Shown: positions 1 through 24,844 of the stretch, piece by piece
How positions within the stretch are numbered: the first letter of the stretch is position 1
Layout of the letters: the number at the start of each line of letters is the position of its first letter
DNA from: an archaeon
GTDB lineage: Archaea > Iainarchaeota > Iainarchaeia > Iainarchaeales > CSSED10-239
Reading direction: 5' to 3'
Assembly (NCBI GenBank): GCA_041657425.1
Contig: JBBABY010000004.1
Location: 69,789-101,788 of the forward strand
DNA length: 32,000 nucleotides
Notes under the pieces: model-generated
The model's input: only the letters and a program-made list of their open reading frames with translations
Database searches by the model: none
Told to the model about the DNA's origin: nothing
Translations under genes and position numbers: made by a program

Positions 1-3000
1 TTTGGTTCTAAAGTTACGCCTTGAGAATTACTTGTAATCTTTATATATTCTGATTCTATATTTGATTTTACATTTGTAATTGTTAATGGTAACACTGTAT
101 TATTCATTAAAATAATATTTGATTTATCTGAATAAGCTTTTGATATATCTAATTGTATCTCTAACTTTTCAGGAATTGTAGAAATTAAATTTTCTGTAAC
201 TAAAAGTTTAGTTGTGCTTGTTCTATACCCTTGTTTTCTTACTGTTATTTCAACTGTATCATTTACATTTGTGGAAGGAAGAGTGAAAACATATGCTCCT
301 TCTTTATTGGTTTTTCCATCAATTATAGGTTTTGTATTTATTCTTACAAATACACTTGCATCAACTAAATTTAAATTGGTGTCACCAGTTACTCCAACAA
401 CCATTACGTTTGGAATATATGGCACAATTGTTTTTGGTAAAATATCAACAGTCAATTGTTTTGAAGGTTTTAAATCAAATAATATCTTCTTTGCAAATAT
501 TGTGTCTCCATTTGAAAGAATAGTTATTGTTAATTCATCACTAATATCATTTACTACACTTAAATCAACTTCTCCATTAACTGTTCCGTTTGCTAAAATA
601 TTTCCTAAAGGAATGTTTGAGAAATCAGTATCAGTTATTGGATAATCTCCACCTGAAGTTATTGTATAACTATTTAATTTAATTGTTTGACCTGCAGTTG
701 TTATTATCATTACTGCATCTGTTGCTGGTTTTTGTAAATTTAATCTAAAGTTAAATTTATAATCTGTTCCGTCTTTTGCTGTAAACTTATCAATTACTCT
801 TTTTTCTAAACCAGTTGTTTTTTCTTTAAATGAAAATGAATAGCAAACTCCATTGTCACAACCTGTTGAATCTCCAACAGAGATTGCTAATTTTTTTGCA
901 TAAGCATAAAGTGCTTGCTTATTTACTGAACTTACGCTTGTTCCTAAAACATTATCTTGCGGATTTCTTAAAACTGAAGAACCTTGTTGATATTCTGCTC
1001 TAAAGAAAATTGCTTGATTTGAAGTTGCGGTGTCTGTTACAACAATATCTGCATCAATAATATATGACCCTTCTAAAGGGTTATCGATTGTTACATTAAA
1101 CCACTTTGCATCTTTTCTTACAATTGAAATTAAATCTTTTGATTCTCCAAGACAAGGAGTGTAATTTATAGATCCAAGAACTTTACTTCCTGCATATCTT
1201 ATTTGTTTAATATAAACTGAATCTTCTGAAACGGAATGTGTTTTACTATCACAAATCTCTCCTTCTCCTGTTCTTATATGCGCTACTGCTTTTAAATATT
1301 TTTTATCTACATTTAAAATAAATCTTGCAGTTGCTGATTGCCCAGGACCAACGCTAGTTAATTGATCTCCATTACTTGCAAAATATCCTATAAATTCTAT
1401 ATTTGCGGAACTTGAAATACTTGTTGGGATTACAATTGTTTCTTGTAACATGCTTTCTGCATCTACTGAATATTGCTTAGAAATAATTCTTGTTCCATCT
1501 TCTTTTTCTATTACAAAATATACTGACTTGTCTGCTCTTACAGGAATCACTGCAAGACCTGTTTCATTTGTCTCTGTTGTTTTTTCGGGCATTTCTTTAT
1601 TTTTAGAAGCATCATAAACTTTTATTGTTGCTTGTACTGGTGTTCCGTCTGCTTCAATAATTGTTAAATTATAAGTACCTTGACCAATTGCAACTACTAC
1701 GGAAAGATCAGTTGCTTCTCTTTCTTTAACAATAAAATTATTTGACTTGCCTGAAAATTCTCCAGTTATTGCTTCTGCAAAATAAGTGGTGTTGGGATCT
1801 AAATTTGAAATTGTGATTCTGCCATAAACGTCTGTTGTTACAATCTTAACAACACTATTATCTAAAGCATCCCAAATTTTTACTGTTGCATACTCTATTG
1901 GTTGCACATCTTTATCTACGACTCCAACATTAAGAACGCCGGTTGTTGATTGTTCCATACTTTTTAATTGTATTTCTAAAATGTTTGCAGAAATACTTAT
2001 TGTTTGAGTTGATAATAAATATCCATCTTTATCTAATGTTAAAGAATAAGAAACATTTTCTTTAATTGCAAATTGTACATACCCAGTTTCATCTGTTAAT
2101 TTTGTATCTATTATTGCTGCATTCTTTGATAACTTTGCAGTTACTCCTTCTAAATAATTTCCTGTTGTTTTGTCTTTAACTTTTATTTTTATAAAACCAA
2201 CAACATCTTTCTTTAATTTTATTTCTTGAGAATTTAACCCATTAGTAATTTGCTTTGCAACTAATGTCCCGTTTTGATAATCTAATTCTGAGACTCCTGA
2301 ATAAATACCAATTGGATCAGAAATTATTATTTTATATTGCTTTGAAACTACCACTAATTCTGAGGTGAAAATTCCATTTTGATTTGTTTGACCATCTTGT
2401 ACTTTCTTTCCGAATATATCATAAATTGTTACTGACATATTTGGAAGTGGTGGATTTGGTAAATCTTTATCTTTAACAGTTACTATTAATGTCGCGTAAT
2501 TATTATTTTCACTAAATGTTATTTCTCCTGTTGTCCCAATATCTGAAATATTTACTTCGTAATCGTTTCTTCCTGCGACATATACTTCTAAACTTCCACA
2601 GTTCTTTGGAACATTATTTAAAGTATATTCTCCAGATGTTACTATTACTTCTTTTTCAAAATCATTAGTTGTACAACTAAATGTAACATCTAATTCAGAA
2701 GTTAATAATGAACCTGACTGTGTCTTGAATGAAATTGTTTTTGTGGTTGTGTTTTGTGTTCTTTCTAAATTTACTAAATATCCACCTTCTTTTTCTGGAA
2801 TTATTGAAATGAATTCTTGATTATTTGTTAACATATATACACTATCGACTAATTTCAAATCATAGATTTTTGTTTTATCTAGGCCTTCTAAATAAACATA
2901 TCCATCTTTGTCGGTTAACAAATTACGTGGTTGATCATCTAGTGTTGCTTTAAGAGCAATTTCAGAAAGTGAATTTGAAGTATCATCTACAAATCTTATT

Positions 3001-3224
3001 GTAGTTCCATTTGGTTGATCTTTAATTACAAATGAGGTTAATAATAAGAAAATTATTAATGCAAAAAGTGCAAGAATTATTACTGAAAATATAGGAAATG
3101 TTGGAATTCCATTTTTTTCTAAAGGATCAACTAACTTATATAAGTTAATTCCTTTTTCTTCAAGATTATCAAGCATCTCGAAATACTTGTCTTCTAGATT
3201 ATAATAGAATTCTTTTAAACCCAT
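1..3224 (-). CDS. Giant N-terminally anchored surface protein, paralog 2. Only the 5' part is in the window (>1074 aa); the C-terminus lies beyond the left edge.
   Basis: Absent from the ORF track because it runs off the edge. Manual minus-strand translation from the ATG at 3222-3224 gives MGLKEFYYNLEDKYFEMLDNLEEKGINLYKLVDPLEKNGIPTFPIFSVIILALFALIIFLLLTSFVIKDQ... and I read it open down to position 1 (...ITSNSQGVTLEP). The N-terminal motif plus TM helix (about 3024..3107) is homologous to that of 5165..14026. It is followed by ~85-90 aa beta-sandwich repeats with the TDxxGY/F...L pattern (CarboxypepD_reg/PEGA-like), then a block collinear with the big paralog (828..1004 vs 11513..11692). Confidence 0.8.
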   Translation of the reverse strand, partial: MGLKEFYYNLEDKYFEMLDNLEEKGINLYKLVDPLEKNGIPTFPIFSVIILALFALIIFLLLTSFVIKDQPNGTTIRFVDDTSNSLSEIALKATLDDQPRNLLTDKDGYVYLEGLDKTKIYDLKLVDSVYMLTNNQEFISIIPEKEGGYLVNLERTQNTTTKTISFKTQSGSLLTSELDVTFSCTTNDFEKEVIVTSGEYTLNNVPKNCGSLEVYVAGRNDYEVNISDIGTTGEITFSENNNYATLIVTVKDKDLPNPPLPNMSVTIYDIFGKKVQDGQTNQNGIFTSELVVVSKQYKIIISDPIGIYSGVSELDYQNGTLVAKQITNGLNSQEIKLKKDVVGFIKIKVKDKTTGNYLEGVTAKLSKNAAIIDTKLTDETGYVQFAIKENVSYSLTLDKDGYLLSTQTISISANILEIQLKSMEQSTTGVLNVGVVDKDVQPIEYATVKIWDALDNSVVKIVTTDVYGRITISNLDPNTTYFAEAITGEFSGKSNNFIVKEREATDLSVVVAIGQGTYNLTIIEADGTPVQATIKVYDASKNKEMPEKTTETNETGLAVIPVRADKSVYFVIEKEDGTRIISKQYSVDAESMLQETIVIPTSISSSANIEFIGYFASNGDQLTSVGPGQSATARFILNVDKKYLKAVAHIRTGEGEICDSKTHSVSEDSVYIKQIRYAGSKVLGSINYTPCLGESKDLISIVRKDAKWFNVTIDNPLEGSYIIDADIVVTDTATSNQAIFFRAEYQQGSSVLRNPQDNVLGTSVSSVNKQALYAYAKKLAISVGDSTGCDNGVCYSFSFKEKTTGLEKRVIDKFTAKDGTDYKFNFRLNLQKPATDAVMIITTAGQTIKLNSYTITSGGDYPITDTDFSNIPLGNILANGTVNGEVDLSVVNDISDELTITILSNGDTIFAKKILFDLKPSKQLTVDILPKTIVPYIPNVMVVGVTGDTNLNLVDASVFVRINTKPIIDGKTNKEGAYVFTLPSTNVNDTVEITVRKQGYRTSTTKLLVTENLISTIPEKLEIQLDISKAYSDKSNIILMNNTVLPLTITNVKSNIESEYIKITSNSQGVTLEP

Positions 3225-3370: not shown

Positions 3371-5098
3371 TTACTCGTTTGGGGGGGTGCAAGGCGAACC
3401 TCCACCTGGCGCAACATAATTTTGACATTTCCAAGCATTTCCTGTAAAATCGACATTCCCTAAACTTGTTGGCCCTAAATAATTATTACCAGTTACTGAT
3501 AACTCGCTCCAAACCCCATTTGGTGGGAAATAAAAAGGCGTATATCTGTCTTCTAAAACTACATTTATTGTTACAGGAAGATTTTGATATTGCTTTCTCA
3601 CTCTGTATCTTGGGTCCGTCTCTATAAATTGTAAGATGATTTTCGCGAAATCCATTTCTGAACAACTGAGATCATAGGACGCGCCTGTTGCTTCACCAGT
3701 AGCTACAATTGGTGGAGATAGATTTGTATTTGCATTATACCAAGTAAATAATCCTGGCATTTCCCAAAGCATTTTAGATCTTTGGGTTTCTGAATTTAGA
3801 AATAAACCAAGACCTCCTGAAACTCCTGACATATCTGATAACTCTGAAAATCTAGTTTGACTAAAACTTGCAGGTGCAGGTCCCGGAGCGTCCCCAAAAA
3901 CGTCTTTGGTTCGTTTTTTATCCATAATTACTTCTACTCCAAAAATATTTAAATCGGAAACTGTGTCGCCTTGCATAACTAAACCGTTATTGTAAGTCAT
4001 TGGGTCTATTCTTGAAGAAATGTTTTCATTTAAAACTGCAGTGTATAGTTTTTCAAATTGCGATTTTGGATCAGAAGTATCAAATAAATTATAGTTGCCA
4101 AAAGGTGGGAAAACTACTCCGGAAAGTGCTGCAGGAGTTGGAGTTGCAATTGTTTGATCGGGAATGTTTTGGCATTGAGAAGCAATTCCTGTAGTTGCTG
4201 GGGTTGCAAAGAAATCTGTTCTTGGTGCACAAGTGCCTGGATCACAAAAACCAAGTCTTGCTTGTTCCAGAGTATTATGAATTTCTGGATTGAATAATCC
4301 TGTGTCGCTTTCTGCAACTGCCGGGTTATCTGATCTTTCTGCATCACGACTATGAGCAATATTTCTTGCAACTCTAAATGCTTGAAAACCACGCCATGGC
4401 ATGTATATCTTGTATATCTGTCTGCTTAGAACTGGTCTTTGAATAACTTGATTACTTTTATATTTTAAAACTGTGACCACTGGTAAGATTTCATAATCTA
4501 CATCAGAAAGCTGCGTAGTATCAAGTGTTAAATAAAATGAACCAACGCAATTATTATCATCAGTTTCACAATCAATAACATCAATTTTCTTTCCACCGTC
4601 TTCAAACATTTTCACAACAACATTTTCAAAAGTGTTTTCGTCATCTATGTCTGTTGGATCTCCATTTGAGCCAACCTCATACCCCGTGTGTTCTTCAATT
4701 GTAATATTATACCCTGGAGGATTTTCTGAATATTGAAGATTAAATATTAATCCTTGAGCAAAGTAAGATGCAAAGTTTTGTTCAAAGAATGTGTCTTGAA
4801 CAAAACTATCTACAAAATAATTCCAATTTTGATCCATTTGTTTTCTAGTTAAATTAAACGAAGTTTTTGATTTACTTAATTCCCATTGCGATCTTAAGAC
4901 AATTAAAAATGTATTAAAAGCATCTGCTCTTGCAATATCTCCTACAGTCATCAAGTCGGACATTGATGATTGATCTTGAATAAGAGAGAGATATGTTTCT
5001 TCTGTATTTATCATATTAAAAATAAGAGCTAGAGATATAGATACAAGTAGCAAAGAAATTAATGCAGTAAATAAGGTAAATCCTTTTTGTGATTTCAT
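3371..5098 (-). CDS. Large (575 aa) secreted protein with a class III (type IV prepilin-like) signal peptide. Candidate pilin-like, tip-adhesin or bindosome-like surface subunit.
   Basis: The N-terminus MKSQKG/FTLFTALISLLLVSISLALIFNMI has a short basic leader, Gly at -1, then a ~24-aa hydrophobic helix. This is the prepilin peptidase (PibD/EppA/FlaK-type) substrate pattern, but with Thr rather than the bacterial Glu at +5. The remaining ~545 aa has no motif I recognise. Paired Cys are present (CDPGTC, CQNYVAPGGGSPC). Confidence 0.7.
   Translation of the reverse strand: MKSQKGFTLFTALISLLLVSISLALIFNMINTEETYLSLIQDQSSMSDLMTVGDIARADAFNTFLIVLRSQWELSKSKTSFNLTRKQMDQNWNYFVDSFVQDTFFEQNFASYFAQGLIFNLQYSENPPGYNITIEEHTGYEVGSNGDPTDIDDENTFENVVVKMFEDGGKKIDVIDCETDDNNCVGSFYLTLDTTQLSDVDYEILPVVTVLKYKSNQVIQRPVLSRQIYKIYMPWRGFQAFRVARNIAHSRDAERSDNPAVAESDTGLFNPEIHNTLEQARLGFCDPGTCAPRTDFFATPATTGIASQCQNIPDQTIATPTPAALSGVVFPPFGNYNLFDTSDPKSQFEKLYTAVLNENISSRIDPMTYNNGLVMQGDTVSDLNIFGVEVIMDKKRTKDVFGDAPGPAPASFSQTRFSELSDMSGVSGGLGLFLNSETQRSKMLWEMPGLFTWYNANTNLSPPIVATGEATGASYDLSCSEMDFAKIILQFIETDPRYRVRKQYQNLPVTINVVLEDRYTPFYFPPNGVWSELSVTGNNYLGPTSLGNVDFTGNAWKCQNYVAPGGGSPCTPPNE
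5009..5098 (-). other. Class III signal peptide / pilin-like N-terminal helix of the 575-aa protein
   Basis: aa 1-30, MKSQKGFTLFTALISLLLVSISLALIFNMI. The predicted cleavage site is after KG. Confidence 0.6.
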
Positions 5099-5164: not shown

Positions 5165-8100
5165 TTATGCAACCTTTGGAATTGCATAATCATCATAAAG
5201 AGCATAACCACTTGATGGAATTACTACTTCACAAATTCTATTTATTTTTACGTCATGAGTAAATCTACTATTTAATGGTTCAAACTCAATATTTGGACCA
5301 AATTGATGAATTACATAATCGATTCCATCTTTTTTCCCAACATATAATATTGCATGTGATGGTTTTACACAATCTATCCCTTTTGTTATTCCAATTGTTA
5401 TAATTGCTCCAGGAACTAAATTTTTCTCGAAATCAACAATACTATCTGTTTTTGCGTCCCAAACTACTTTATTATTTTTTCCAAGTTCCCATGCATCTCC
5501 ATTTACATATTGTCCAATTCCAGGATAATTTTTTTCTGCAACTTGCTGTGCAAATGTAGAACAATAATCTGCAGAAATTGCAGAAACATCTTCACATGCA
5601 GATTTTGCAGGAGCTTTTGGAAATTTACAAGATTCATAACTTTGTAATTTCGGTTCTTTCTCGTTATACATATTTACTTGTATTTGTAATAAATCTGCAG
5701 AGACTTCTACTGCTGAACCTGGAGTTTCTGGATCTGTTACTGTTGAACCAGGATTTTCTGAATCTGTTTTTTCAGTTGTGTCTTCTGGAGTTTTTTGTGG
5801 AGGAGTTCCTTGTAATAATTCTTCTCTATGTTCAGAAGTTAATATTTCTTTTATTTCTTTATTATTTTCATAAACTATTTTATTATCTTCTGCAATAGAT
5901 GGAATTTCATTAACTATTTTAAAGTTAAAATTATTAGTTTTTTTATCAATCTCAACTTTATACCATGTTCCGTTTCTAAATTCAGTAATTGGCATCGAAC
6001 TATCTGCTCCATATGCTAAACCATTATACTGCCCAGTCTCTGCAGAATATTCTAGTAATCTATTTCCTAAATAATTAGATAACACAACAACTCCAATATC
6101 TAAACCAATTTTTCCTGTGGTTCTACCGAATTTAGTCCATTTAGTTACCCCGGCAGATGCTAACCCTTTTGCAGATAATTTAACTTCATCTATGTTTTTT
6201 ACAAGATCATCAGTTACATCATATAATCCTGCGGTATTTTTTGGACCCGCTTTTATATTTTCTAAACTATTTATAGTATTTTCAGCACCTTCTTTTGATT
6301 TCGTAAATGCATCTATTTCATTATCTAATATTTTTAGTTTCTTTGTTTTATTTATCTTTGAAGAACTCCATCCACTCTTTTCTAATTTTGCTTTTGCAGC
6401 AAGTGATTTTTCTAATTGGTCTTCAGCTAATTTCTGAGTACCTTTTGCTTCTCTTAAATAATCATCAACAGTTTCTGCAGATAAAGTTTTAGGAATTGTA
6501 GTTGTGATTGTTGATGGTGGTGCAAGATTAGTTCCTAACAATTTATCTACATCATCAATTGCAGAATTTATTTTTGGTGCATCAGTTGTTATTTGTTTAG
6601 TTAATACATCATCTAATTGATATTCAGTTGGTGACTTTAGGGTTGCACCACTTTTCATATTTGTTTTAAGTGTATCTATGTCTGTAATTGCGCTTGTTGT
6701 TTTTGTTTGTGCTGTAATTAAATCATCATAAACTTGATCTGTTCCTGCTGCTGGTGGCGTTGGATAATCTGCTTTTATCTTTGCATCTATTGTTTTTAAA
6801 TGAGTATCTAGTGCTGCTTTAGAATCATCTGTTGCTTTTACCAAATCATCAAAATTTCTTTTGGGCATTATGTTTGTTGTTGATGTTCCACCTGATTTTG
6901 TAAATTGATTTAATCTATCAGTGAATAACTTTTTATCTGGCGTAATCCAATTCCCTGGGGTATCATAACTTCCAGTAGTAATTATTCTTTCAAATTCTGT
7001 TAATTCTGCATTAGATAATGCATTAAATTTAATCATATCTAATTTCCCAGAAGTTGTTATTTTACTAAATAGGCTTCTAACTGCAGCGTCATCTGACATT
7101 CCTGTGGCTACATTAACTCCTGGAGCAAATCTAATATCTGTTGGTGCAACATATGGTGCGCCTGTAGGTTGACTCACATAATTTTGAAGATACCTGTATT
7201 GATTATTTAATTGTCCTTCAAATAATACTTGTGTAGATGGTGTAAGCCCTTTTGTTGTGGTTGTTGTTGTTGAACTTATTCCTGTTGCATTTATTTTTGT
7301 TGTTGTTGGATATGTTGGATTTGGATTTGGGGTAGTTTGAGTAATCGGATCTAAATCTGCACCCATAATTTTATCTGAAATTGCTATTCTGTCTGCAGCG
7401 GGTTTATTTTCTACTATACTTGCACCTACTGGCCCTGCAACCATTGCAACATTTTTTGGAGAAAATACTTTCCCAATTAATTCTCCAACATCGCCAGTGA
7501 TTTCTTTTGTAAATCCTTTAATTATTTCCCAAATTGGAATTTTTATTTCGGTCTCTTCTAGATACATTGCTCCTGCAGGAAGACCACAACCTGGTGCACA
7601 ATTCCAAGCAATGTCTGAAATAATTTTTGCTTGGCCTAAAATTGGTAATAAATTCCAAAGAGTATCTACTCCAGCAGTTGCTAATGCACAAGGAGTTAAA
7701 CATCCTGCTAAAAATGTGCCAGCTCTTTTTGCGGCTCTATCATTATTTGCTTTTATTTCTGATTTAGTTTTTTCAAAGTCACATGCCTCTGGTTTCTTGA
7801 AAATGGTTAGTTTGTCTCCAACGTTTTTATTGTATTTTTCTAAAGTGCTACAATATGCTTCTTTGTCTTCTTTATTGTACGCTTTATCCCAATCTACATA
7901 TGCATAGAAATTACTTTCAGTTTTTGCTTTGTCTTTTCCTAATACTTCCATTTCCTTTTGAGTTTGTTTTAGAAGGTCTTGAGGGGTTATTCCATAGTTT
8001 AATAATGTAATATTTGTGTCGCTTTTTCTTATTGAATTAATTTTACCAACTGTTGAATATTTGCTTTCTGCAGTTATTACTAATTGCTTATTACTCCAGT

Positions 8101-11100
8101 TTGCAATTTCTGAAATGTCTCCTTGTATACAAATATTAAAGTCTGTACCTTTGTCTTTTTCTAAAATCATTGAAAAAGTATTTTCTGATTCTTTTCCTTG
8201 GTAATTAAATTTAGTTTTTACTCCAGGTAATTCTTGAGTTTTAATTTCTATTTGCTCAGTAATTGCAGAAGTTGCGGTTACTACTGTACAGGTACTTGTT
8301 GGAAGTAACTGAAGCTTATCTGTTTTTGCTTTTAGACTTAATGCCCCAAAGTCTTTATCAAAAGATAAAATTAACATATAATTCCTATCTTTAGAAATAC
8401 AAATGTCTGCGGGATTACCTTCGATTATGTTTTTAATATCCTTTGCTGTTTGATTAATAAATTCGCTTGGATAATTAACGTCTTCATTTTCTGTGGGTAT
8501 TCCAAACTTATTATTTATAATTACATTTATTGTTTCTGCTTGAGGATCTTTTGGTTCTCCAGGATTCTTAAAATAAAGTTTAGCAATTGCTGTTTTATCT
8601 TCAGCAATTTCTCCAACAGAAATATTTAATTGACTAAATTTCTTTTGTTCATTTGTCTTTAATTGGAATCTGTCTTCTGTATTAAATACGCCTTTTGAAA
8701 CTGGAAGACCGAAATCTTTATCCCCACTAATTACTGTTAACCATGTGTCTCTTGTATTTGTTTTAGAAAGTGCATTATCTATATCTTTTGGCAAATACAT
8801 CCTTATATTTTCTATACTCTTCTTACATTGTTCAGTTTTATTTGCATCAATTGTTACAAAGAAATATGCATTTTCTGCATCAAGTTTTGTTTGGCCTTTT
8901 GTTGCAACTGACCCGTCAATTGTTATCTTATATCTTCCACAACCATTTATTTTATTATCAATATGTATTACCACTCCGCCAGCTATTGAAAGCCCGCCTG
9001 TTGTTGCCCCAACATTTGGCCTTACCATAGCCCCTTTTATTGTTGGAAACTTTGTTGCTTCTTTATTGTTTTGAAGCACAGATAAAACTGTATTATCTGA
9101 TAATGAATCATTCTGAACATATAATGGAATATTTCTAAACTTTGCTAATTGCTCAGAAGTTAATAACTCTGAAATTGGACAACTGCCATTTATTGCAGAA
9201 GTCATAGAACAATTTGTTTGATCTACTTCGTCAGCAACTTGTCTTGATGCATTTATTACCATTGTATGCATTTCTTGTATTTTCTCAGCAATGAACTCTG
9301 CAGCATTAGAACTATCACAATATCCTTCTTGTTTACAATCTGTAACAATTATTGGGAATGTAAAATTTGCAGTTTCGCTATCACTATCTGCTGCTTCTCC
9401 ACAAATTTTTACACTTACATCTTCTTCTACTCTTTTAAAATCTGCTGTAATATCTGGATTTATTTCTTCAACTTCTAGTGAAAACGAAAGTCTATCAGAA
9501 GTTACAACACTTCCAGGAGTATTGTTTAATGGCGCGCCAATTAATCTTAATGATTGATCTATTTTTGCAGGGAAATATTCCAGAGGTTTTACTTTTAGAA
9601 TATATGGAACCGTTTGACCTGAAGCAATAAACCCTGTAGGACTCTGAGGAATCAACCATAATTGAGTATTTTTTCCAAATGCTTGATCATAAAGATTAGG
9701 AGAAATATTTGCACTAGGGTCAAATGTAATATAACCAACTGGATCAGCACATTGATTTGTAACATTGATTAACTTAGATTTTTCTTCTCCAACTTTTGCA
9801 TAGATGTATATTTTCTTTTGATCAACTTTTAAACACCCAGCTGATGAAAATCTAAAGTCTACAGTGAATCTTGCTTCTATTGGTTCCTTAACCCCTTTTG
9901 CATCTGCTGTAACTTTATAGTAGAGTGTTGCATAAGTTGCTTTATCTACTTTTCCTTCATATCTTATAATTATTTTTTTTGATTGACCAGGTTTTATTTC
10001 TTCAAAACTTATAGGTTCAATTTTGTCTTGGATATTTGAAGGTAGTTTTTCTTCAAATCTTGAAATCTGTATATTTTTTACTGGATATTTACCATTATTC
10101 TTTAATAAAAACATTGTTTGATTTGCAGCAGGCGTTACATCCATTTCTTGAGTTAATGAAACTAAAGATAGTGGAGGAGACACACTAATAGTTTTTGAGA
10201 AATCAACTAAATCTAAATTAAGTTTTGTGTTCTCTAAAGCATAATATGAGTTTCTCCAGGCAATTTCAAATGCGTAACTCTTTGTTGATTTTCTTTCTTT
10301 ATTATTTCTTATTGTTATTGTATAATCTGTTATTTCTTCATTAGGTTCAATTGTTATTGTTGGAAGATCAATTTCTATATTTTCGTCTTTCTTAATTGTT
10401 GTGCCTTTTGCTTTTAATAATTCTGGAGTGATTATTAATGACTTTGAACAATTATTTACGATTGTCGCAGTTATTTCATTTTCTGAACCTTCACTTATTC
10501 CAACATAAGCATAGATTGCTAATGGTTTGATTTCTAGACAATCGTTCTTTACTATTCCTCTATAATAATTAATAGTTATCTCTTTAGCTACTTGCTTGTT
10601 TCCTACAAAACCATAAATGGTTAAAATTGATTTCCCTGTTTTGAAATTTATCTTTGGATCCACTGTTGAAAAGATTTCTATAACTTCTGGAGCGCCAGGA
10701 TTTAATGCAATTGGTAATTGTGTTTCTGTTGTTAGTCCAATTACTTTATCTATCTCTGTTATCGTGTATGTTAAATCTTTAACTTGTATGCTTCCTTTGT
10801 TAACAAGAGTTATCTTCTCTGACTCTTGACTAATGCTTTCTCCAAAACTTATATCTATACTATCTGGTGCGTAGATTAAACCGGTGTCTGCAATTGTTAA
10901 TTGTTTTGTAAATGAAATATAACCTGGAGCACTAACTTCCATATTTGGTTTTGCACTTGAGAAGTTTTGATTAATAATATATTTTCCGTTCTTTCCTGTT
11001 TTTGTACTGGAAATCGTATCTCCGAACTCGTCTGTTAATTTTACTAATGCATTATTAATTGCAGTTTTGTTATCTGCATCTTGTACATCTATAATTATTG

Positions 11101-14026
11101 GAGAATTATATGCAATGATTTCTGGAACTGTAATTATTAGATTTCTCTTTTGTTTTATTTCAAAACTTAATCTTTTTTCTATAACTTTACTATTAAATGT
11201 ACTTTTTATATCTAAGTAAGTTATTCCTGTATCTTTTGCTTTAAATAATATATATTGTTTTCTGTTCACGCCTGATTGTATTACAAATACTGAAGAACTT
11301 AATTTTGTATCTTGTGAATCAAGACTAGAGGTTGGAAACAATTCTGTTTCTTGATAACTTATTAAACCAACTATTGGCTTACTATTGTCAGTTTGTGCTT
11401 CTATTGTTAGTTCTCCATTTAACACACTGTAATAACTCAATTCAAGAAGATATAAGTCATCTTTTACTGCAAAGAAACTTTCTTTTGAATAATCAAAATT
11501 ATCTTTATCTAAAAATTTGTAATCAACACAAAGATTATTAGAGCACTCTGCTGGACTCTCTAAAATGTTTAAGGATAAATCTTTTGTTTCTGCATATAAG
11601 CTTTGTCGTGAAGAATTATTTTTTGAAGTTCCAAGTATCGTGTCTTCAGGATCTCTGTATGTTGAACCAGTAACATCACACCATGCTCTATACTTGATTG
11701 GCATTGTGCCGATTTCACTTGCTTTAACTTTTAACATTACTTGCTTGTTTGTTAATGTACTACTTGGCCAATATAATTCTAACCATTTATTTAATTGATT
11801 TGGTTGTCCAACATTATCTGTATCAATTGATTGTTCTCCAGAATTATAAGTTGTAGAATATTTGTAGGTTATTGTGTCTGCTTTAAATCCGGTTATTCCA
11901 TAAGTCATGTTTTCAGAATCAGACTCGAAATATTCTCCTGCTCTGAAATGCACTCCGCAACTTTTTGCATCAATTGGGAGTTGTAAATCAAAGACAAGAT
12001 AGTAATCTGCATCTTTACTTAGAACACTTGTTGGATTATTATATATATCTCTTAATTCTATAAATGTAATTACTGGATTATAATCTATAACTGATGGTTT
12101 AAGAGCTACTGATAATTTTTCGCTATCTCCAACAACTGCAGAAACAATTGTTGTCGCGCCATTTTCATCTGTATATTCTATTAATAAATCCCTATAGCCT
12201 TGAGTATTGAATGACAATGGAGTTTCATCAAGACAGGTGTCTGAAAGAATCTCTCCAAGTTTTGATTTTACAACAACACATCCGTTGGTTACACCATTTC
12301 CATGTAAGTCTTTTAATTCTAAAGTAACTATCTTTGATGCATCGTTAATTGTTAAAATTACTTTATTGTCCTTAAATGGATCAATAGTTATTTCCTTAGA
12401 AGCATTAGCATCTCCAACAACCCCTACAACATTATATTTTTCTCCTGATTTGGTATAGACTGAAGTAAATCCTGTAAGATCAACTTGAAGTGGGCCTAAG
12501 CCTATTGGAACAAACTTTCCTCCTAATTCTTTGTATACTAAAACATTCGCTTTCGAGATTGGATTATTTACTCCATCATAAACATAAATTGAAAGCTTGT
12601 AACTATTATCTGTAGTAATTTTTTCTAAACTAATTTCTAAATCATTTGATAAAGAAATATTCACATATTGTTGTAAACAAAGATATCCATCTTTACAAGC
12701 AGTAACTACATATTCTTGATTTTGATCAAGACCATTAAATATTACTTGCCCATCCATTTCTGTGGTTTTAGAAGATAAAAGATTTCCAGTTAAACTGTAT
12801 AATGAAATGCCTACTTGATCTAATGGGCCAACTAAGTTTTCTGTAACTTTAACTTTTAAATCAGAACTTCCTGCAATCATCTTTATAGTAATTGTTTCTT
12901 CGCTTTTTAATAATCTATATGTTACATTGTACGTATCACTGTCATAAATTCTATAGCCTTCTTTAGTTACTACAAAACGAATTGCTTGCCCAGCATTTAA
13001 TGTAAATGTAGTTTTACCTAATTTTGTAATCTCGCTACCAATTATTTCTCCAACAGCATTATAAATGATAACATTACAATCATCAAGTAAATCCCCGTTT
13101 TGTGTTGTTGTTATTAATATTAATCTTGATTGCGTGCCTGCTAATTGAGCAGTGTTGTCGTATTCTAAATTTATAGTTCTAGTTTCATTAGAACTTGTTA
13201 ATTTTATTGTTTGAGTTAATGTTTCATAACCGTCGCTAACAATTGTTAAAGTTATATCTTTTCCTATAGGAACCCCTGTAAAATCAATCTCTCCCAATGT
13301 ATTTGGTTCTCCAATCTTTTCTTGAGCTTGACCATTGATTTTATAATCTAATGTTGCTGAGTATTTACTTACAGATTTATTAGTTTGGCTATCTGTAACT
13401 ATTAATTTTAAATTGCCAGTCTCTATTAATTCATTAAATTGTATAACTAATGGACCATCTCCGGAATACATAAATGGTTTCTCATAAACTTGAAATCCTT
13501 CTTTTGTTGCTGTGACTGTATAATCTTTTCCCGGACTTATTGCAATTCTTCTCTTTTCTCCATTACTTATTATTTCATTAAATTTAGCTTTATCATTTAA
13601 ATCTCTTATTGAAACTTGCACATAATTTAATTTATTTCCTGAATAATCCATTATGCTAAACTCAACTGTTGTCTTTGTTGCAAAGTTGATTACTAAAAAA
13701 ATGATTATTGCTAAAATAATTATTGAAAGACTTGTAACGAAAGCAAAAGAAGGAATTCCTTTATCTTCAAGAAAATCATTTAGTTTGTTTAAGCCTATTC
13801 CTTTCTTACCTAACCAATCAGAAAATGCAAAATACCTATCTTCCAAACCTCTATAGATTTTGCCAAAAATATTTCCCTCTTGCTGTTTATCCATTTCATT
13901 ATCTGAAAAATCATTATTAACTTCAGAATAATCTTCAATTTCTTGATTATCAGAAATCTCTTGATCTTCTAAATCAGAAAAATCCTCTTTTTTTGTTTTC
14001 TTTGGTTTTGCTTTTTCTTTTGCCAT
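5165..14026 (-). CDS. Giant (2953 aa) N-terminally membrane-anchored multidomain surface protein with a C-terminal NlpC/P60-CHAP-like cysteine peptidase domain
   Basis: An uninterrupted 8862-nt ORF. aa 1-91 form a Lys-rich then acidic cytoplasmic tail that includes a motif shared with the paralog. One TM helix spans aa ~92-116. aa ~120-645 hold about six CarboxypepD_reg/PEGA-like beta-sandwich repeats. aa ~650-2095 hold further beta-sandwich-like modules of the ITLVNKGS.../ITATIVNNCS.../FLLKNNGK... type (CARDB-like pattern). aa ~2103-2205 are hydrophobic, Gly- and Cys-rich segments, followed by a Thr/Pro linker and a helical region. The last ~158 aa carry a Cys-His-His papain-fold signature. 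Confidence 0.9.
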   Translation of the reverse strand: MAKEKAKPKKTKKEDFSDLEDQEISDNQEIEDYSEVNNDFSDNEMDKQQEGNIFGKIYRGLEDRYFAFSDWLGKKGIGLNKLNDFLEDKGIPSFAFVTSLSIIILAIIIFLVINFATKTTVEFSIMDYSGNKLNYVQVSIRDLNDKAKFNEIISNGEKRRIAISPGKDYTVTATKEGFQVYEKPFMYSGDGPLVIQFNELIETGNLKLIVTDSQTNKSVSKYSATLDYKINGQAQEKIGEPNTLGEIDFTGVPIGKDITLTIVSDGYETLTQTIKLTSSNETRTINLEYDNTAQLAGTQSRLILITTTQNGDLLDDCNVIIYNAVGEIIGSEITKLGKTTFTLNAGQAIRFVVTKEGYRIYDSDTYNVTYRLLKSEETITIKMIAGSSDLKVKVTENLVGPLDQVGISLYSLTGNLLSSKTTEMDGQVIFNGLDQNQEYVVTACKDGYLCLQQYVNISLSNDLEISLEKITTDNSYKLSIYVYDGVNNPISKANVLVYKELGGKFVPIGLGPLQVDLTGFTSVYTKSGEKYNVVGVVGDANASKEITIDPFKDNKVILTINDASKIVTLELKDLHGNGVTNGCVVVKSKLGEILSDTCLDETPLSFNTQGYRDLLIEYTDENGATTIVSAVVGDSEKLSVALKPSVIDYNPVITFIELRDIYNNPTSVLSKDADYYLVFDLQLPIDAKSCGVHFRAGEYFESDSENMTYGITGFKADTITYKYSTTYNSGEQSIDTDNVGQPNQLNKWLELYWPSSTLTNKQVMLKVKASEIGTMPIKYRAWCDVTGSTYRDPEDTILGTSKNNSSRQSLYAETKDLSLNILESPAECSNNLCVDYKFLDKDNFDYSKESFFAVKDDLYLLELSYYSVLNGELTIEAQTDNSKPIVGLISYQETELFPTSSLDSQDTKLSSSVFVIQSGVNRKQYILFKAKDTGITYLDIKSTFNSKVIEKRLSFEIKQKRNLIITVPEIIAYNSPIIIDVQDADNKTAINNALVKLTDEFGDTISSTKTGKNGKYIINQNFSSAKPNMEVSAPGYISFTKQLTIADTGLIYAPDSIDISFGESISQESEKITLVNKGSIQVKDLTYTITEIDKVIGLTTETQLPIALNPGAPEVIEIFSTVDPKINFKTGKSILTIYGFVGNKQVAKEITINYYRGIVKNDCLEIKPLAIYAYVGISEGSENEITATIVNNCSKSLIITPELLKAKGTTIKKDENIEIDLPTITIEPNEEITDYTITIRNNKERKSTKSYAFEIAWRNSYYALENTKLNLDLVDFSKTISVSPPLSLVSLTQEMDVTPAANQTMFLLKNNGKYPVKNIQISRFEEKLPSNIQDKIEPISFEEIKPGQSKKIIIRYEGKVDKATYATLYYKVTADAKGVKEPIEARFTVDFRFSSAGCLKVDQKKIYIYAKVGEEKSKLINVTNQCADPVGYITFDPSANISPNLYDQAFGKNTQLWLIPQSPTGFIASGQTVPYILKVKPLEYFPAKIDQSLRLIGAPLNNTPGSVVTSDRLSFSLEVEEINPDITADFKRVEEDVSVKICGEAADSDSETANFTFPIIVTDCKQEGYCDSSNAAEFIAEKIQEMHTMVINASRQVADEVDQTNCSMTSAINGSCPISELLTSEQLAKFRNIPLYVQNDSLSDNTVLSVLQNNKEATKFPTIKGAMVRPNVGATTGGLSIAGGVVIHIDNKINGCGRYKITIDGSVATKGQTKLDAENAYFFVTIDANKTEQCKKSIENIRMYLPKDIDNALSKTNTRDTWLTVISGDKDFGLPVSKGVFNTEDRFQLKTNEQKKFSQLNISVGEIAEDKTAIAKLYFKNPGEPKDPQAETINVIINNKFGIPTENEDVNYPSEFINQTAKDIKNIIEGNPADICISKDRNYMLILSFDKDFGALSLKAKTDKLQLLPTSTCTVVTATSAITEQIEIKTQELPGVKTKFNYQGKESENTFSMILEKDKGTDFNICIQGDISEIANWSNKQLVITAESKYSTVGKINSIRKSDTNITLLNYGITPQDLLKQTQKEMEVLGKDKAKTESNFYAYVDWDKAYNKEDKEAYCSTLEKYNKNVGDKLTIFKKPEACDFEKTKSEIKANNDRAAKRAGTFLAGCLTPCALATAGVDTLWNLLPILGQAKIISDIAWNCAPGCGLPAGAMYLEETEIKIPIWEIIKGFTKEITGDVGELIGKVFSPKNVAMVAGPVGASIVENKPAADRIAISDKIMGADLDPITQTTPNPNPTYPTTTKINATGISSTTTTTTKGLTPSTQVLFEGQLNNQYRYLQNYVSQPTGAPYVAPTDIRFAPGVNVATGMSDDAAVRSLFSKITTSGKLDMIKFNALSNAELTEFERIITTGSYDTPGNWITPDKKLFTDRLNQFTKSGGTSTTNIMPKRNFDDLVKATDDSKAALDTHLKTIDAKIKADYPTPPAAGTDQVYDDLITAQTKTTSAITDIDTLKTNMKSGATLKSPTEYQLDDVLTKQITTDAPKINSAIDDVDKLLGTNLAPPSTITTTIPKTLSAETVDDYLREAKGTQKLAEDQLEKSLAAKAKLEKSGWSSSKINKTKKLKILDNEIDAFTKSKEGAENTINSLENIKAGPKNTAGLYDVTDDLVKNIDEVKLSAKGLASAGVTKWTKFGRTTGKIGLDIGVVVLSNYLGNRLLEYSAETGQYNGLAYGADSSMPITEFRNGTWYKVEIDKKTNNFNFKIVNEIPSIAEDNKIVYENNKEIKEILTSEHREELLQGTPPQKTPEDTTEKTDSENPGSTVTDPETPGSAVEVSADLLQIQVNMYNEKEPKLQSYESCKFPKAPAKSACEDVSAISADYCSTFAQQVAEKNYPGIGQYVNGDAWELGKNNKVVWDAKTDSIVDFEKNLVPGAIITIGITKGIDCVKPSHAILYVGKKDGIDYVIHQFGPNIEFEPLNSRFTHDVKINRICEVVIPSSGYALYDDYAIPKVA
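5168..5641 (-). other. NlpC/P60-CHAP superfamily-like papain-fold domain (C-terminal 158 aa of the giant protein)
   Basis: DYCSTFAQQV (Cys2822, codon 5561-5563) ... PGAIITI ... PSHAILYVG (His2891, codon 5354-5356) ... DYVIHQ (His2907). Order and spacing resemble DCSG...GDLVFF...HVGIY...IHA of NlpC/P60 endopeptidases. Confidence 0.6.
5708..5767 (-). repeat. Two tandem 30-nt units (26/30 identical) in the linker preceding the peptidase domain
   Basis: Plus-strand units are tactgctgaacctggagtttctggatctgt and tactgttgaaccaggattttctgaatctgt. They encode TDSENPGSTV and TDPETPGSAV. Confidence 0.85.
7229..7342 (-). other. Thr/Pro-rich low-complexity linker (probable glycosylated hinge) inside the giant protein
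   Basis: aa ~2229-2266, ITQTTPNPNPTYPTTTKINATGISSTTTTTTKGLTPSTQ. Confidence 0.7.
7562..7720 (-). other. Internal hydrophobic Gly/Ala/Cys-rich segment of the giant protein (possible membrane-interacting element)
   Basis: aa ~2103-2155, GTFLAGCLTPCALATAGVDTLWNLLPILGQAKIISDIAWNCAPGCGLPAGAM. A second hydrophobic stretch, NVAMVAGPVGASIV, lies at 7412..7453. Confidence 0.45.
12092..13669 (-). repeat. Array of ~85-90 aa beta-sandwich (CarboxypepD_reg/PEGA-like) protein repeats, diverged at the DNA level
   Basis: A recurring pattern V.V.D..G.P......L......G...TD..G...F..L......Y.V.A.K.GY. Examples are VTATKEGFQVYEKPF, VVTKEGYRIYDSD, VVTACKDGYLCLQQ and TIVSDGYETLTQT. Confidence 0.6.
13679..13858 (-). 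other. Conserved cytoplasmic N-terminal motif plus signal-anchor TM helix shared by both giant proteins
   Basis: IYRGLEDRYFAFSDWLGKKGIGLNKLNDFLEDKGIPSFAFVTSLSIIILAIIIFLV here, compared with FYYNLEDKYFEMLDNLEEKGINLYKLVDPLEKNGIPTFPIFSVIILALFALIIFLL at 3024..3206. Confidence 0.75.
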
Positions 14027-14185: not shown

Positions 14186-14743
14186 TTAGAAAGAAACTTT
14201 AACATTCTTCTTTTCTTCTTGACTTGCTTCTAAGAATGTTTCTTCTTTGAAATTAAATGCGTTAGCAAACATATTGTTTGGTACTGTTTGGATCTTGTTA
14301 TTATAATCCATAACTATATCGTTATAATATTGTCTTGCATAAGCGATTTTGTTTTCAATACCTGAAAGTTCTTCTTGAAGCATTAAGAAATTTTGACTTG
14401 CTTTTAAGTCAGGATAGTTTTCAACAACTACACTTAACAAACCACCAATTGCTTTAGACATTTGATCATTTGTTTTCATTGTTGCTTTTATGTCCTTACT
14501 TTGCATTGCTTGATTTCTTAATTCTGTAATCTTTGATAAAGTTCCAGCTTCGTGCTTTGCATAGCCTTTAACTGTTTCAACTAAGTTTGGTACTAAATCG
14601 TATCTTTTTTTTAATTGAACATCTATTTGGCTCCAGCCGTTTTTAACTTTATTTCTTGCGATAATTAGAGAATTAAAAATAGTCAATGCGATTATAACAA
14701 GTACTGCAATAATTCCTAAAATTACCCAAATTGCTATATTCAT
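14186..14743 (-). CDS. lemA: LemA family membrane protein
   Basis: An N-terminal TM helix followed by the LemA signature region ...NSLIIARNKVKNGWSQIDVQLKKRYDLVPNLVETVKGYAKHE...LRNQA.... A strong SD-like AGGTGAT lies 5 nt upstream of the ATG. Confidence 0.9.
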   Translation of the reverse strand: MNIAIWVILGIIAVLVIIALTIFNSLIIARNKVKNGWSQIDVQLKKRYDLVPNLVETVKGYAKHEAGTLSKITELRNQAMQSKDIKATMKTNDQMSKAIGGLLSVVVENYPDLKASQNFLMLQEELSGIENKIAYARQYYNDIVMDYNNKIQTVPNNMFANAFNFKEETFLEASQEEKKNVKVSF

Positions 14744-15698: not shown

Positions 15699-16187
15699 CT
15701 ACTCTACTAGTTTTTCTAAGGACTCTGCTCTGTAAAATACTAAGTCATAATCTATTATTTCCTTATCTTTAGAAACAATATAAGGATTATCTTTGTGAGA
15801 TAAATTTGATATTTGAGTCGCAGAAAGATTTCCTAATTTTTTTATAACTTTATCAATAGTAGAGATTTCTTCTTTTGATAATTTACTTAATTTGGGAATA
15901 TCTAAAATCTTATACTTTGTGTTTTGTGATAACTGTTTAGTTTCTATTTTATTTTCCTTTTCTAGTTTATTAATTATTATTGCGATATGTACTGGGGCAG
16001 GACCAAACTCAATCTTTCTATAATCTTCATTTGTAATTGATTTATTGTTTTTTTTATAGTGATTAAAATCAGAAAAATATAATAATTTATATAATACGGT
16101 TTTTCCAAAATTTGGATTAGAACTACAATTAAAAATAATATAATGAACCATTTCACTTAATTTCTCAGAATTATAATTTATAGTCAT
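15699..16187 (-). CDS. DUF4065 / Panacea-domain (SocA/PanA-like) antitoxin
   Basis: GKTVLYKLLYFSDFNHYKKNNKSITNEDYRKIEFGPAPV plus the C-terminal ...LSATQISNLSHKDNPY... match the characteristic KLLYF.D...G..IT...Y....GPVP and SH...PW blocks of DUF4065. Confidence 0.8.
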   Translation of the reverse strand: MTINYNSEKLSEMVHYIIFNCSSNPNFGKTVLYKLLYFSDFNHYKKNNKSITNEDYRKIEFGPAPVHIAIIINKLEKENKIETKQLSQNTKYKILDIPKLSKLSKEEISTIDKVIKKLGNLSATQISNLSHKDNPYIVSKDKEIIDYDLVFYRAESLEKLVE

Positions 16188-22092: not shown

Positions 22093-22902
22093 ATGGCATT
22101 AAAAATACAAAATTCATTTAAACCAAAAATTCCACCAAAAACTAAATTTGGGAATATACATGATTTTTTAGAAATGCTTATTATAAAAAAAAAGAAAAAT
22201 TTTGAAGATTCAAAACAAAGATTTGATAAATATATCTCTCAGGAATCAATTAATAATACTTGGTTTCATCAAAGACAATTATCTGATTATTTAGACATAT
22301 TGCCTGTCGATTCTAAAATTATAACTAAAAATTCTTTTTTCAATTTCTTAAAAACTAGATCTAAAGAAACCAGAGAAGAGCTTTCTATTTTAGACGATGG
22401 CATTGGCGATGGATTCTTTCTAAGTGAACTTAAAAACGAATTAAATAAGTTAAATATTCGTAATAAAACAACAGGTATAACCTTAAGTAAGAGCGATACC
22501 GAAAATTTTAAAAAAAATATTGCCAATATAAATGAAGTTTTATATACGAGAACAGAAGATTATGTTCCTAAAAAAAGATTTGATTTAATTACAAGTGCAT
22601 ATGGGGGATTTAATTATAGTTTTGAAATTATCAAAAAGGAAGTATTATTAAAATTAGCTTATTCTTTAAAAAAAGGAGGCGTATTAATTATTTTATTTGA
22701 TTTAGATATGAGTTTAGTGAATTTAAAACCAAAAAAAGAAAATCCTTATATTAATTATAACTTTATTTCTCCAAAAGAAATAACTCGTTTTTCTACGACT
22801 TTGATTCAAAGTTTAAATAAAAGAGGATTTGATGCAGAAATTAAAAAAGTGAGTGCAAAAAATATGCTACAAGACGTACTAATTATAAAAAGAGTTAAAT
22901 AA
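22093..22902 (+). CDS. Class I SAM-dependent methyltransferase-like protein, paralog 1
   Basis: Motif I ILDDGIGDGFFLSEL, an acidic post-I residue (GITLSKSD), motif II FDLITSAYG and motif III LKKGGVLIILFD. Collinear with 24002..24772 and 24794..25549, including the C-terminal ...IIKRVK. Confidence 0.7.
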   Translation: MALKIQNSFKPKIPPKTKFGNIHDFLEMLIIKKKKNFEDSKQRFDKYISQESINNTWFHQRQLSDYLDILPVDSKIITKNSFFNFLKTRSKETREELSILDDGIGDGFFLSELKNELNKLNIRNKTTGITLSKSDTENFKKNIANINEVLYTRTEDYVPKKRFDLITSAYGGFNYSFEIIKKEVLLKLAYSLKKGGVLIILFDLDMSLVNLKPKKENPYINYNFISPKEITRFSTTLIQSLNKRGFDAEIKKVSAKNMLQDVLIIKRVK

Positions 22903-23380: not shown

Positions 23381-23665
23381 ATGACTGCAAAAAAAGAAAG
23401 GCCATTAGATGAATATCCAACAGCTAATGATGTGTTTTTTGTTGAAAATGTTTTGGATAATTGGTATGATTCTGCAATCAAAATAACAGAACTTACTAAA
23501 AAGTTACCAAAAGAAATTACTGAAGATAAATTAAAACAAATTGTGTATTATTTAGAAAAAACAAATAAAGTTCTTGTCAACAGAGAAAAAAATCAATTAA
23601 TCTATATCGCAAATCCTTCTCAAAAACTTTGTTCTGCTATTAAAAAAGGAATAAAATATGAGTGA
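23381..23665 (+). CDS. Putative antitoxin (94 aa, winged-helix-like, unclassified) of the downstream RelE/ParE toxin
   Basis: An 8-nt overlap with the toxin ORF, small size and upstream position. No recognisable RHH, Phd or HigA motif. Confidence 0.5.
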   Translation: MTAKKERPLDEYPTANDVFFVENVLDNWYDSAIKITELTKKLPKEITEDKLKQIVYYLEKTNKVLVNREKNQLIYIANPSQKLCSAIKKGIKYE

Positions 23666-24785: not shown

Positions 24786-24844
24786 TGATAATTATGAAAA
24801 AAGCAATGGCTACACAAAGACCAAAGATAACGGTGTCTAATTAT
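24786..24844 (+). repeat. 59-nt block, copy 2 (8 nt upstream plus the first 17 codons of methyltransferase paralog 3)
   Basis: tgataattatgaaaaaagcaatggctacacaaagaCcaaagatAacggtGtctaattat. Confidence 0.9.

Follow-up and report, generated by a model that had tools for sequence, protein, structure and literature searches.

A predicted papain-fold peptidase at the exchangeable tip of an anchored giant protein from a DPANN archaeon

What use would an archaeon presumably lacking murein have for a domain reminiscent of bacterial wall peptidases at the far end of a protein of almost 3000 residues? The question is raised by a stretch of archaeal DNA of 32,000 nucleotides (GenBank assembly GCA_041657425.1, contig JBBABY010000004.1, positions 69,789 to 101,788 of the forward strand; G+C content 29%), referred to below as the window, from whose first letter all positions are counted. 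According to the list of open reading frames and their translations, a giant gene at 5165..14026 on the minus strand encodes 2953 residues plus a stop codon. The gene is real, as judged by eleven relatives, ten of them full-length, that share 33–61% identity with its product; for the full-length orthologues, values of 48–61% were obtained. An earlier interpretation made from the letters alone, the sequence-only reading, had assigned the last residues of this protein to the papain-fold NlpC/P60 and CHAP peptidases and had described the whole as a stalk with a lytic warhead. The explanation favoured on balance by the analysis reported here is that an anchored stalk presents a papain-fold tip peptidase, which would cut the wall of a neighbouring bacterium.

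A papain-like fold in a divergent family

The tip domain (residues 2773–2953; 5168..5710, minus strand) is described here as a new family of divergent NlpC/P60-CHAP-like cysteine peptidases with a predicted papain fold, on the basis of an AlphaFold2 model, profile–profile alignment with hhalign, and structural comparison with Foldseek. When the tip alone was used as a query, no Pfam family was matched, the sole match being a subthreshold one to DUF6310 (E 0.0055), and NCBIfam returned noise and no family. Likewise, no relative was found among PDB sequences, where a single unrelated match appeared at E 0.56, and a word-indexed homologue search retrieved none. When 1.84 billion representative proteins were scanned exhaustively with HMMER, 22 matches were obtained at E ≤ 1e-3, none of which reached E ≤ 1e-30. 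They fall into three groups: the C-termini of giant proteins, two mid-sized multidomain proteins (P0023 and P0027), and small proteins of 116–217 residues, several of which carry a visible hydrophobic N-terminal anchor. Two alignments form the basis of what follows. A2 comprises 22 family sequences with a mean column identity of 30%, and A1 the eight giant-protein tips; P0030 (995 residues, repetitive, E 2.8e-4) was left out as a low-complexity match, as were P0014, P0018, and P0021, which are fragments or near-duplicates. Comparison of every family member with PHROGs revealed nothing significant.

Only five columns of A2 are invariant (C50, N80, G101, H119, and G125), and two of them correspond to predicted catalytic residues. 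Cys2822 (C50; codon 5561..5563, minus strand), the predicted nucleophile, and His2891 (H119; 5354..5356, minus strand), the predicted general base, are retained in all 22 sequences. The predicted third member of the triad, His2907 (5306..5308, minus strand), occupies a position that is H, Q or E in the family; these are the residue kinds found as the third member of NlpC/P60 triads. The Gln that follows His2907 is invariant only among the giant-protein tips of A1. All three codons lie where the sequence-only reading had placed them, and its motif strings DYCSTF, PGAIITI, PSHAILYVG, and YVIHQ are all present in the translation; of its Cys-His-His signature, the first two residues prove invariant and the third has to be relaxed. 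Since nucleophile and base are among only five invariant columns at this level of identity, the motif represents more than chance. The third invariant residue of note, Asn2852 (N80; 5471..5473, minus strand), is absent from canonical NlpC/P60 enzymes and falls within the 15 residues by which the Cys-to-His distance exceeds theirs. A pair of cysteines, Cys2800 and Cys2811 (5594..5629, minus strand; columns C28 and C39), is invariant in the eight giant tips and absent from most small homologues. The pair may form a disulfide, which would fit an extracellular, oxidising location. Because these cysteines and a confidently modelled N-terminal helix belong to the domain, its start, which the sequence-only reading had set at residue 2796 (position 5641), was moved to about residue 2773 (position 5710).

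Comparison of single family members with curated models was of limited help. PF00877 gave a subthreshold match in two of the 22 members (E 0.016) and none for the query even at E ≤ 10, the CHAP model PF05257 matched none of the 22 at E ≤ 10, and Peptidase_C92 (E 0.011) and DUF1287 each matched one member weakly. The Y-x-W-G-G motif that precedes D-C-S-G is not found in the query, which reads SADYCSTF without WGG; both motifs are present in the canonical NlpC/P60 tips that P0008, P0010, and P0015, orthologues of the giant protein, carry. When the A2 profile was used against PDB sequences, the type VI secretion amidase Tae2 came first (6win, E 0.038) and an NlpC/P60 protein of Trichomonas second (6biq, E 0.12), both alignments spanning the PG-strand and the H..YVG segment. 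Profile–profile alignment went further. Against a canonical NlpC/P60 profile built from the three tips of the orthologous giants, hhalign gave E 2.4e-4; after enrichment of that profile to seven sequences with four PDB fragments, it gave Prob 88% and E 3.2e-6, with Cys2822, His2891, and His2907 placed on the canonical Cys, His, and His, the last being the His of the canonical ‘IHA’ motif.

The AlphaFold2 model computed from A2 is confident, with a predicted local distance difference test score (pLDDT) of 88.9 and a predicted template modelling score of 0.88. In this model, Cys2822 is the first residue of helix 50–61, His2891 the first residue of strand 119–127, and His2907 (H135) lies in strand 130–137; as modelled, the layout is that of a papain-like active site. 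The top Foldseek matches in the PDB were the CHAP lysin Ly7917, LytE (probability 1.00, target TM-score 0.67), RipA, BCE_2878, phi812 CHAP, DVU_0896, Tae2, and PlyC, and comparison with the viral models of BFVD returned many phage CHAP/C51 endolysins. Nearly all of the top matches are thus CHAP, NlpC/P60 or other papain-like proteins; for the modelled structure, the matches are modest in E-value yet coherent. A reading of the tip as transglutaminase- or PeiW-like was dropped; no such enzyme appeared among the top structural matches. Taken together, the tip very probably belongs to the NlpC/P60-CHAP superfamily of papain-like (clan CA) proteins and is probably an active enzyme. The fold assignment of the sequence-only reading is borne out by hhalign, the model, Foldseek, and the invariant Cys and His. 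Of the profile searches it had suggested as a check, those with PF00877 and PF05257 stayed below threshold and the profile–profile comparison succeeded, and the structure prediction it had envisaged yielded a confident model with papain-like matches.

Two alternatives bear on the fold itself. A chance motif, or an inactive and purely structural domain, would suit the lack of any curated family matching the tip and the weak structural E-values; it is hardly credible given that the predicted nucleophile and base are invariant at 30% mean column identity, that their register matches that of canonical enzymes, and that the structure model is confident. The NlpC/P60 superfamily also includes lipid acyltransferases, and the tip might accordingly act on the lipids of a host as an LRAT/HRASLS-like acyltransferase or phospholipase, or else be a transpeptidase-like enzyme tethering the archaeon covalently to a host wall. 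Anantharaman and Aravind reportedly described the LRAT and YaeF branches in 2003 as circularly permuted, with the His before the Cys. In the tip the order is Cys-His-His, colinear with canonical P60 enzymes, and no lipid acyltransferase is found among the 50 structural matches listed, which makes this pair of possibilities very improbable; the permuted LRAT/YaeF-type branch was ruled out by the order Cys2822-His2891-His2907.

The distribution of the family is narrow. A genome scan with the A1 profile found five loci only, all labelled ‘archaeon’, and the family members whose source is named are attributed to Candidatus Diapherotrites/Iainarchaeum, to Candidatus Micrarchaeia or again simply to an ‘archaeon’. 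The contigs that carry small homologues also encode archaeal histones, Hef-type helicase-nucleases, the archaea-specific editing domain of threonyl-tRNA synthetase, and archaeal ribosomal operons. A protein labelled Candidatus Pacearchaeota archaeon shows 100% identity to the XPD helicase encoded in the window, and the named relatives next in line come from Iainarchaeum and Diapherotrites. These genes place the source organism among the DPANN archaea, to which the family looks confined so far. The superfamily fold and the concept of large murein-lytic proteins in DPANN archaea are already known; what is new is a family restricted to DPANN archaea and missed by every curated model, its place at the C-terminal end of a giant protein with an N-terminal anchor, and the exchange of this tip among orthologues without an immunity gene.

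Anchor, stalk, and interchangeable tips

The giant protein begins with a conserved, predicted cytoplasmic motif at residues 58–95, YRGLEDRYFAFSDWLGKKGIGLNKLNDFLEDKGIPSFA (13742..13855, minus strand), which is common to all orthologues and to a second giant protein encoded in the window. It leads into a single strong transmembrane helix of the signal-anchor type (residues 92–116; 13679..13753, minus strand), identified on the Kyte-Doolittle scale: the 19-residue peak of 3.06 at residues 95–113 marks the only segment above 1.6. The next-best hydrophobic segments, at residues 963–981 (1.53) and 2102–2131 (1.26–1.45), both remain under this usual cut-off. The gene model that NCBI provides for this protein (P0001, 2828 residues, labelled ‘archaeon’) starts at Met126 and thereby loses both the conserved motif and the sole transmembrane helix (13652-14026, minus strand). 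All orthologues, unlike this gene model, keep the long N-terminus, and work based on the annotation of P0001 would miss the membrane anchor.

Beyond the helix, residues ~117–2101 (7724..13678, minus strand) form a stalk of repeated beta-sandwich domains, as delineated by Pfam matches and orthologue identity. A CarboxypepD_reg/SdrD_B domain at residues 981–1047 (10886-11086, minus strand) is matched above the cut-offs by PF13620 (E 1.7e-11) and PF17210 (2e-7), whereas bMG3/SpaA-like matches at residues 384–463 (12638-12877, minus strand; PF11974, 1e-5) stay under the cut-off. The Cys/Gly/Ala-rich hydrophobic patch that follows the stalk at residues 2102–2131, AGTFLAGCLTPCALATAGVDTLWNLLPILG (7634..7723, minus strand), is moderately conserved; it could be a membrane-interacting segment or alter the topology. 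Residues 2200–2600 (6227..7429, minus strand), just inboard of the tip, are the fastest-evolving part of the protein: among close orthologues, identity to the query amounts to 45–76% over residues 1–2100, falls to ~12–30% here, and is 35–45% in the tip. The last ~45 residues of this region appear as a helix in a low-confidence model of residues 2560–2748.

A conserved pre-tip module (residues 2638–2739; 5810..6115, minus strand) ends with TSEHREELLQ and is present in all 13 aligned orthologues, whatever their type of tip. Its ‘G-x-W-Y-K-V’ motif prompted the guess of an SH3b-like wall-binding module, the AlphaFold2 model being too poor for a fold search (pLDDT 46). The module is joined to the tip by a flexible linker rich in Thr, Pro, and Glu (8, 6, and 4 of 33 residues, respectively), which spans residues 2740–2772 (5711..5809, minus strand) and differs in length and sequence between orthologues. 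An architecture of N-terminal signal-anchor, long beta-sandwich stalk, and C-terminal enzyme is thus supported, and it is quite likely that the tip is exposed outside the cell.

What sits at the tip varies between orthologues. The new domain is also found in orthologues P0002–P0007 and P0009 and in the more distant P0017, a canonical PF00877 domain takes exactly the same place in P0008 and P0010, and in P0015 the two stand in tandem, first the new domain and then PF00877 (E 1.5e-23). P0011 ends after the pre-tip module and has no enzyme tip. All tips are preceded by the common boundary ...TSEHxEELLQ..TPQ and then by the variable Thr/Pro/Glu-rich linker. The locus that encodes P0010 (L006) is syntenic with the window: genes for XPD, flavodoxin/ferredoxin, a protein of ~600 residues in the place of the DUF2207 protein of the window, phosphoenolpyruvate synthase, a low-molecular-weight phosphatase, and LemA are followed by the giant gene, a gene for ~560 residues (558), and further giants (genes for 2416 and more than 1576 residues). 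This synteny indicates tip replacement within orthologues. The canonical tip of P0010 is closest to Tn916-type cell-wall hydrolases of Clostridioides (E 5e-23 to 4e-21).

No small gene that might encode an immunity protein lies downstream of the giant gene, where a 66-bp spacer is followed by the gene for a pilin-like protein of 575 residues. The latter is kept 3′ of the giant gene both in the window and in L006, whatever the tip type; it is a conserved neighbour, and there is no tip-specific immunity gene. The topology proposed by the sequence-only reading agrees with these results, both for its only clear transmembrane helix at about residues 92–116 and for its combination of archaeal surface anchor, stalk, and C-terminal enzyme, to which the signal-anchor, the beta-sandwich Pfam domains, and the DPANN source all correspond. 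Its image of a stalk with a lytic warhead is strengthened by orthologues whose tips consist of the new domain, PF00877, both, or neither.

That the tip directly follows the flexible linker of a giant protein would also be compatible with a processing protease that acts in cis or on the surface proteins of its own cell, releasing or maturing the giant or its neighbours, as has been proposed for C39-like and CPD domains of other giant proteins and of toxins. For giant proteins of bacteria, self-cleavage by a protease domain has been suggested (bioRxiv 10.1101/2023.11.21.568195). This role is nevertheless quite improbable for the tip: the same domain occurs in small, standalone, membrane-anchored proteins, a bona fide wall hydrolase domain can take its place, and it pairs with SLT and YkuD domains as described in the following section. 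Moreover, the lack of a tip in P0011 implies that the stalk does not require one.

Substrate and proposed role

Three independent associations make murein the likeliest substrate. The first is the replacement of the tip by PF00877, or its tandem arrangement with it. The second is a fusion: P0027 (locus L010, 3280-8883), a signal-peptide protein of 1867 residues, combines the new domain (residues 1114–1216) with a YkuD L,D-transpeptidase domain (residues 1353–1507; E 6e-16). The new domain also occurs in a shorter relative, P0023 (908 residues), and the remainder of both proteins is unannotated; an assignment of the C-terminus of P0027 to SLT, guessed from ‘AQES...GIAQI’, was dropped for lack of Pfam support. 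The fusion with YkuD would also suit a cross-linking enzyme and hence the transpeptidase-like tether already considered. The third association is with genes for SLT lytic transglycosylases. In L012 (7317-8838), the gene for a lipoprotein-like SLT lytic transglycosylase is the second one downstream of a small homologue, whereas in L016 (5806-7100) an SLT gene abuts the start codon of the small homologue, and both genes interrupt a neighbourhood, AsnC - X - HAD - histone - Hef, that is conserved apart from this insertion. An SLT neighbour, differently arranged each time, is thus found at two of the six distinct small-homologue loci, which renders the association suggestive, not universal. In the giant protein itself, SLT (PF01464) has no match anywhere in the 2953 residues at E ≤ 10. 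SLT genes are described as normally lacking in archaea (PMC8204110).

The same fold might instead act on an envelope polymer of an archaeal host, such as the pseudomurein peptide of Methanobacteriales and Methanopyrales, gamma-glutamyl polymers, or S-layer and other surface proteins. The pseudomurein peptide contains gamma-glutamyl and epsilon-lysyl isopeptide bonds, NlpC/P60 enzymes (family C40) typically cut gamma-glutamyl amide bonds, and another papain-like family, PeiW/PeiP (C71), cleaves pseudomurein. In addition, the confinement of the family to DPANN lineages that include Micrarchaeia and Diapherotrites and the lack of a murein-related neighbour at most small-homologue loci speak for such a target, and cultured DPANN archaea have, to our knowledge, archaeal hosts. 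However, the domains that replace, accompany or neighbour the new one, namely the PF00877 domain closest to Firmicute wall hydrolases, YkuD, and SLT, are all specific for bacterial murein, and no transglutaminase-like or C71 similarity occurs among the top structural matches. An archaeal envelope polymer is therefore regarded as an unlikely substrate, albeit one to be reckoned with. In one paper, DPANN hosts are given only as diverse microbial hosts (PMC10936187).

A number of observations weigh against a murein-directed tip peptidase. The tip lies below the Pfam thresholds for PF00877 and PF05257, and the best Foldseek E-values are 5e-3 in the PDB (Ly7917) and 2.4e-3 among viral models, with none at or below 1e-3 and TM-scores of 0.3–0.67. 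The hydrophobic patch at residues 2102–2131 makes the topology slightly uncertain. Pfam found no SH3b, LysM, PG_binding or SPOR wall-binding module in the giant protein, and at four of the six distinct small-homologue loci no murein-related neighbour is present. Lastly, named family members include Micrarchaeia and Diapherotrites, and we know of no bacterial host for either. With these points taken into account, bacterial murein still appears, from the domain associations, somewhat better placed than not as the substrate of the tip. Among the three substrates put forward by the sequence-only reading, murein is hence favoured by PF00877, YkuD, and SLT, lipids are disfavoured by the residue order, and pseudomurein still stands.

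A mechanism for a peptidase acting on the wall of a neighbouring bacterium can be outlined as follows. The charged, conserved ~90 N-terminal residues would remain in the cytoplasm, and the one signal-anchor helix would fix it in the membrane of the archaeon. The beta-sandwich stalk of about 2000 residues, together with the fast-evolving region, would carry the enzyme outward on its flexible linker. There, Cys2822 at the N-terminus of its helix would act as the nucleophile and attack an amide bond of the wall peptide, while His2891 would serve as the base, oriented by His2907 (replaced by Gln or Glu in relatives). In this way, the peptidoglycan of a touched bacterium would be cleaved at amide bonds of its peptide stems or cross-links, and the wall would be loosened for attachment, feeding or killing. 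Since the archaeon presumably has no murein, no immunity protein would be needed. The tip would represent an exchangeable module, present as the new domain, as canonical NlpC/P60, as both, or not at all. In a more speculative variant, the tip would form a long-lived acyl-enzyme with the wall peptide and thereby a covalent tether to the partner.

A swappable tip on a conserved stalk provides a testable model of how an ultra-small archaeon might reach and open the wall of a neighbour. With its compact size of 180 residues and C2822A as a clear control, the tip lends itself readily to expression and to assays on muropeptides or pseudomurein. Among DPANN archaea, most of which have obscure hosts and lifestyles, murein-directed enzymes are one of few hints in the sequence that a lineage has bacterial and not archaeal partners.

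Neighbouring genes and comparison with known systems

The pilin-like protein of 575 residues (3371..5098, minus strand) is encoded between two giant genes; its translation has a class III-like pilin N-terminus, MKSQKGFTLFTALISLLLV, and no Pfam match. Possibly it belongs to the same surface apparatus. The second giant gene (3..3224, minus strand) starts at 3224 and runs off the start of the window, its open reading frame covering at least 1074 residues. In its product, 38 residues match the anchor motif of the first giant (55% identity, E 2e-9), and in L006 the place of this gene is taken by the genes for 2416 and more than 1576 residues. Anchor motif and transmembrane helix, which recur in P0012, look like an N-terminal module that giant surface proteins of DPANN archaea have in common. 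The membrane-protein genes LemA (14186-14743, minus strand) and DUF2207 (18772-20583, minus strand) flank the region upstream of the first giant gene; LemA and the ~600-residue gene occupy the corresponding places in L006. Genes of toxin-antitoxin type near the giant locus encode a SocA/Panacea-domain protein (15699-16187, minus strand) and a ParE-like toxin preceded by a small unannotated open reading frame (23381-23996, plus strand). Three paralogous-looking class I methyltransferase genes (22093-22902, 23993-24772, and 24794-25549, plus strand), two of them adjacent, have weak Pfam matches only. Searches for tRNA and Rfam features found none in the window.

With the canonical NlpC/P60 enzymes (MEROPS C40, PF00877), exemplified by LytE of B. 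subtilis, MepS/Spr of E. coli, and RipA of M. tuberculosis, the tip shares a papain-like core. Common to both are the colinear arrangement of a Cys at the N-terminus of a helix, a His at the start of a strand, and a His or other polar residue on the next strand, as well as the pattern ‘PG-hydrophobic strand ... H-x-x-x-Y-x-G ... x-I-H-x’. Several differences exist, however. The spacing from Cys to His is 69 residues in the tip and ~54 in the canonical enzymes, and that between the two His residues is 16 versus 12; the tip possesses an extra N-terminal helix with the Cys pair and a family-specific invariant Asn; and it scores below the PF00877 threshold, lacks Y-x-W-G-G and D-C-S-G, and belongs to a family that apparently occurs in DPANN archaea only. 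CHAP enzymes (PF05257; Ly7917, the phi812 hub CHAP, and PlyC) provide the best structural match in the PDB (Ly7917, E 5e-3), and phage CHAP enzymes likewise terminate larger delivery structures, i.e., tail or hub proteins. In contrast, the tip has no Pfam CHAP match, and sequence profiles favour P60 and Tae2 over CHAP. Tae2 (6win), an amidase effector of the type VI secretion system, is a small enzyme of the NlpC/P60 superfamily that is delivered to a neighbouring cell for wall cutting, and W-Q...G..I...H..F.G...D-Q-W can be aligned with the tip at a marginal E-value of 0.038. While Tae2 is injected by the type VI secretion system and paired with a cognate immunity protein, the tip is covalently attached to the giant and has no immunity gene.

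At the level of architecture, the giant protein resembles the polymorphic toxins and the giant proteins of Omnitrophota in its long stalk and in a C-terminal module that varies from one orthologue to the next beyond a conserved pre-tip boundary. Polymorphic toxin systems such as CdiA, Rhs, and MAFB are said to have been described by Zhang, Aravind and colleagues in 2012. Giant proteins of predatory Omnitrophota have been implicated in wall degradation (bioRxiv 10.1101/2023.11.21.568195). The present protein differs from polymorphic toxins in that no immunity gene lies downstream, in that it is archaeal and held by an N-terminal transmembrane anchor and not exported by type V, VI or VII secretion, and in that the tips of the giant orthologues are so far only of the wall-hydrolase type. 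A bolder and tentative proposal, less probable than the wall-cutting role itself, is that DPANN archaea have evolved their own NlpC/P60-like peptidase clade as one of several interchangeable warheads on anchored stalks of ~3000 residues; these would form an archaeal, immunity-free counterpart of the polymorphic toxins and would imply a bacterial host or prey.

The closest precedents come from archaea themselves. Pacearchaeota and Woesearchaeota encode extracellular proteins of up to ~3000 residues with a murein lytic transglycosylase domain, which have been read as tools for binding or degrading bacterial walls (PMC8204110, PMC9723730, PMC10936187). These giants, exemplified by fam00969 (PMC8204110), stem from the same kind of organism, reach a similar size, are predicted to be extracellular, and have been proposed to attack or attach to bacterial walls; they carry an SLT glycosidase, whereas the protein described here bears a peptidase domain of an unrecognised family at a swappable tip. 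A literature search retrieved no paper naming both ‘DPANN’ and ‘NlpC’. That archaeal peptidoglycan hydrolases kill bacteria has been shown experimentally, and recognisable homologues of peptidoglycan hydrolases are found in about 5% of archaeal genomes, being particularly prominent in Nanoarchaeota (PMC12352652). In that system too, archaea lacking murein encode secreted murein hydrolases. Differences lie in the form of the proteins, secreted in the characterised cases and part of an anchored giant here, and in the manner of detection: the survey relied on recognisable hydrolase domains, and a tip family invisible to Pfam would go uncounted. As neither Pfam nor NCBIfam sees this family, homology surveys of archaeal peptidoglycan hydrolases undercount it, and counting it in would change which DPANN lineages score as potential attackers of bacteria.

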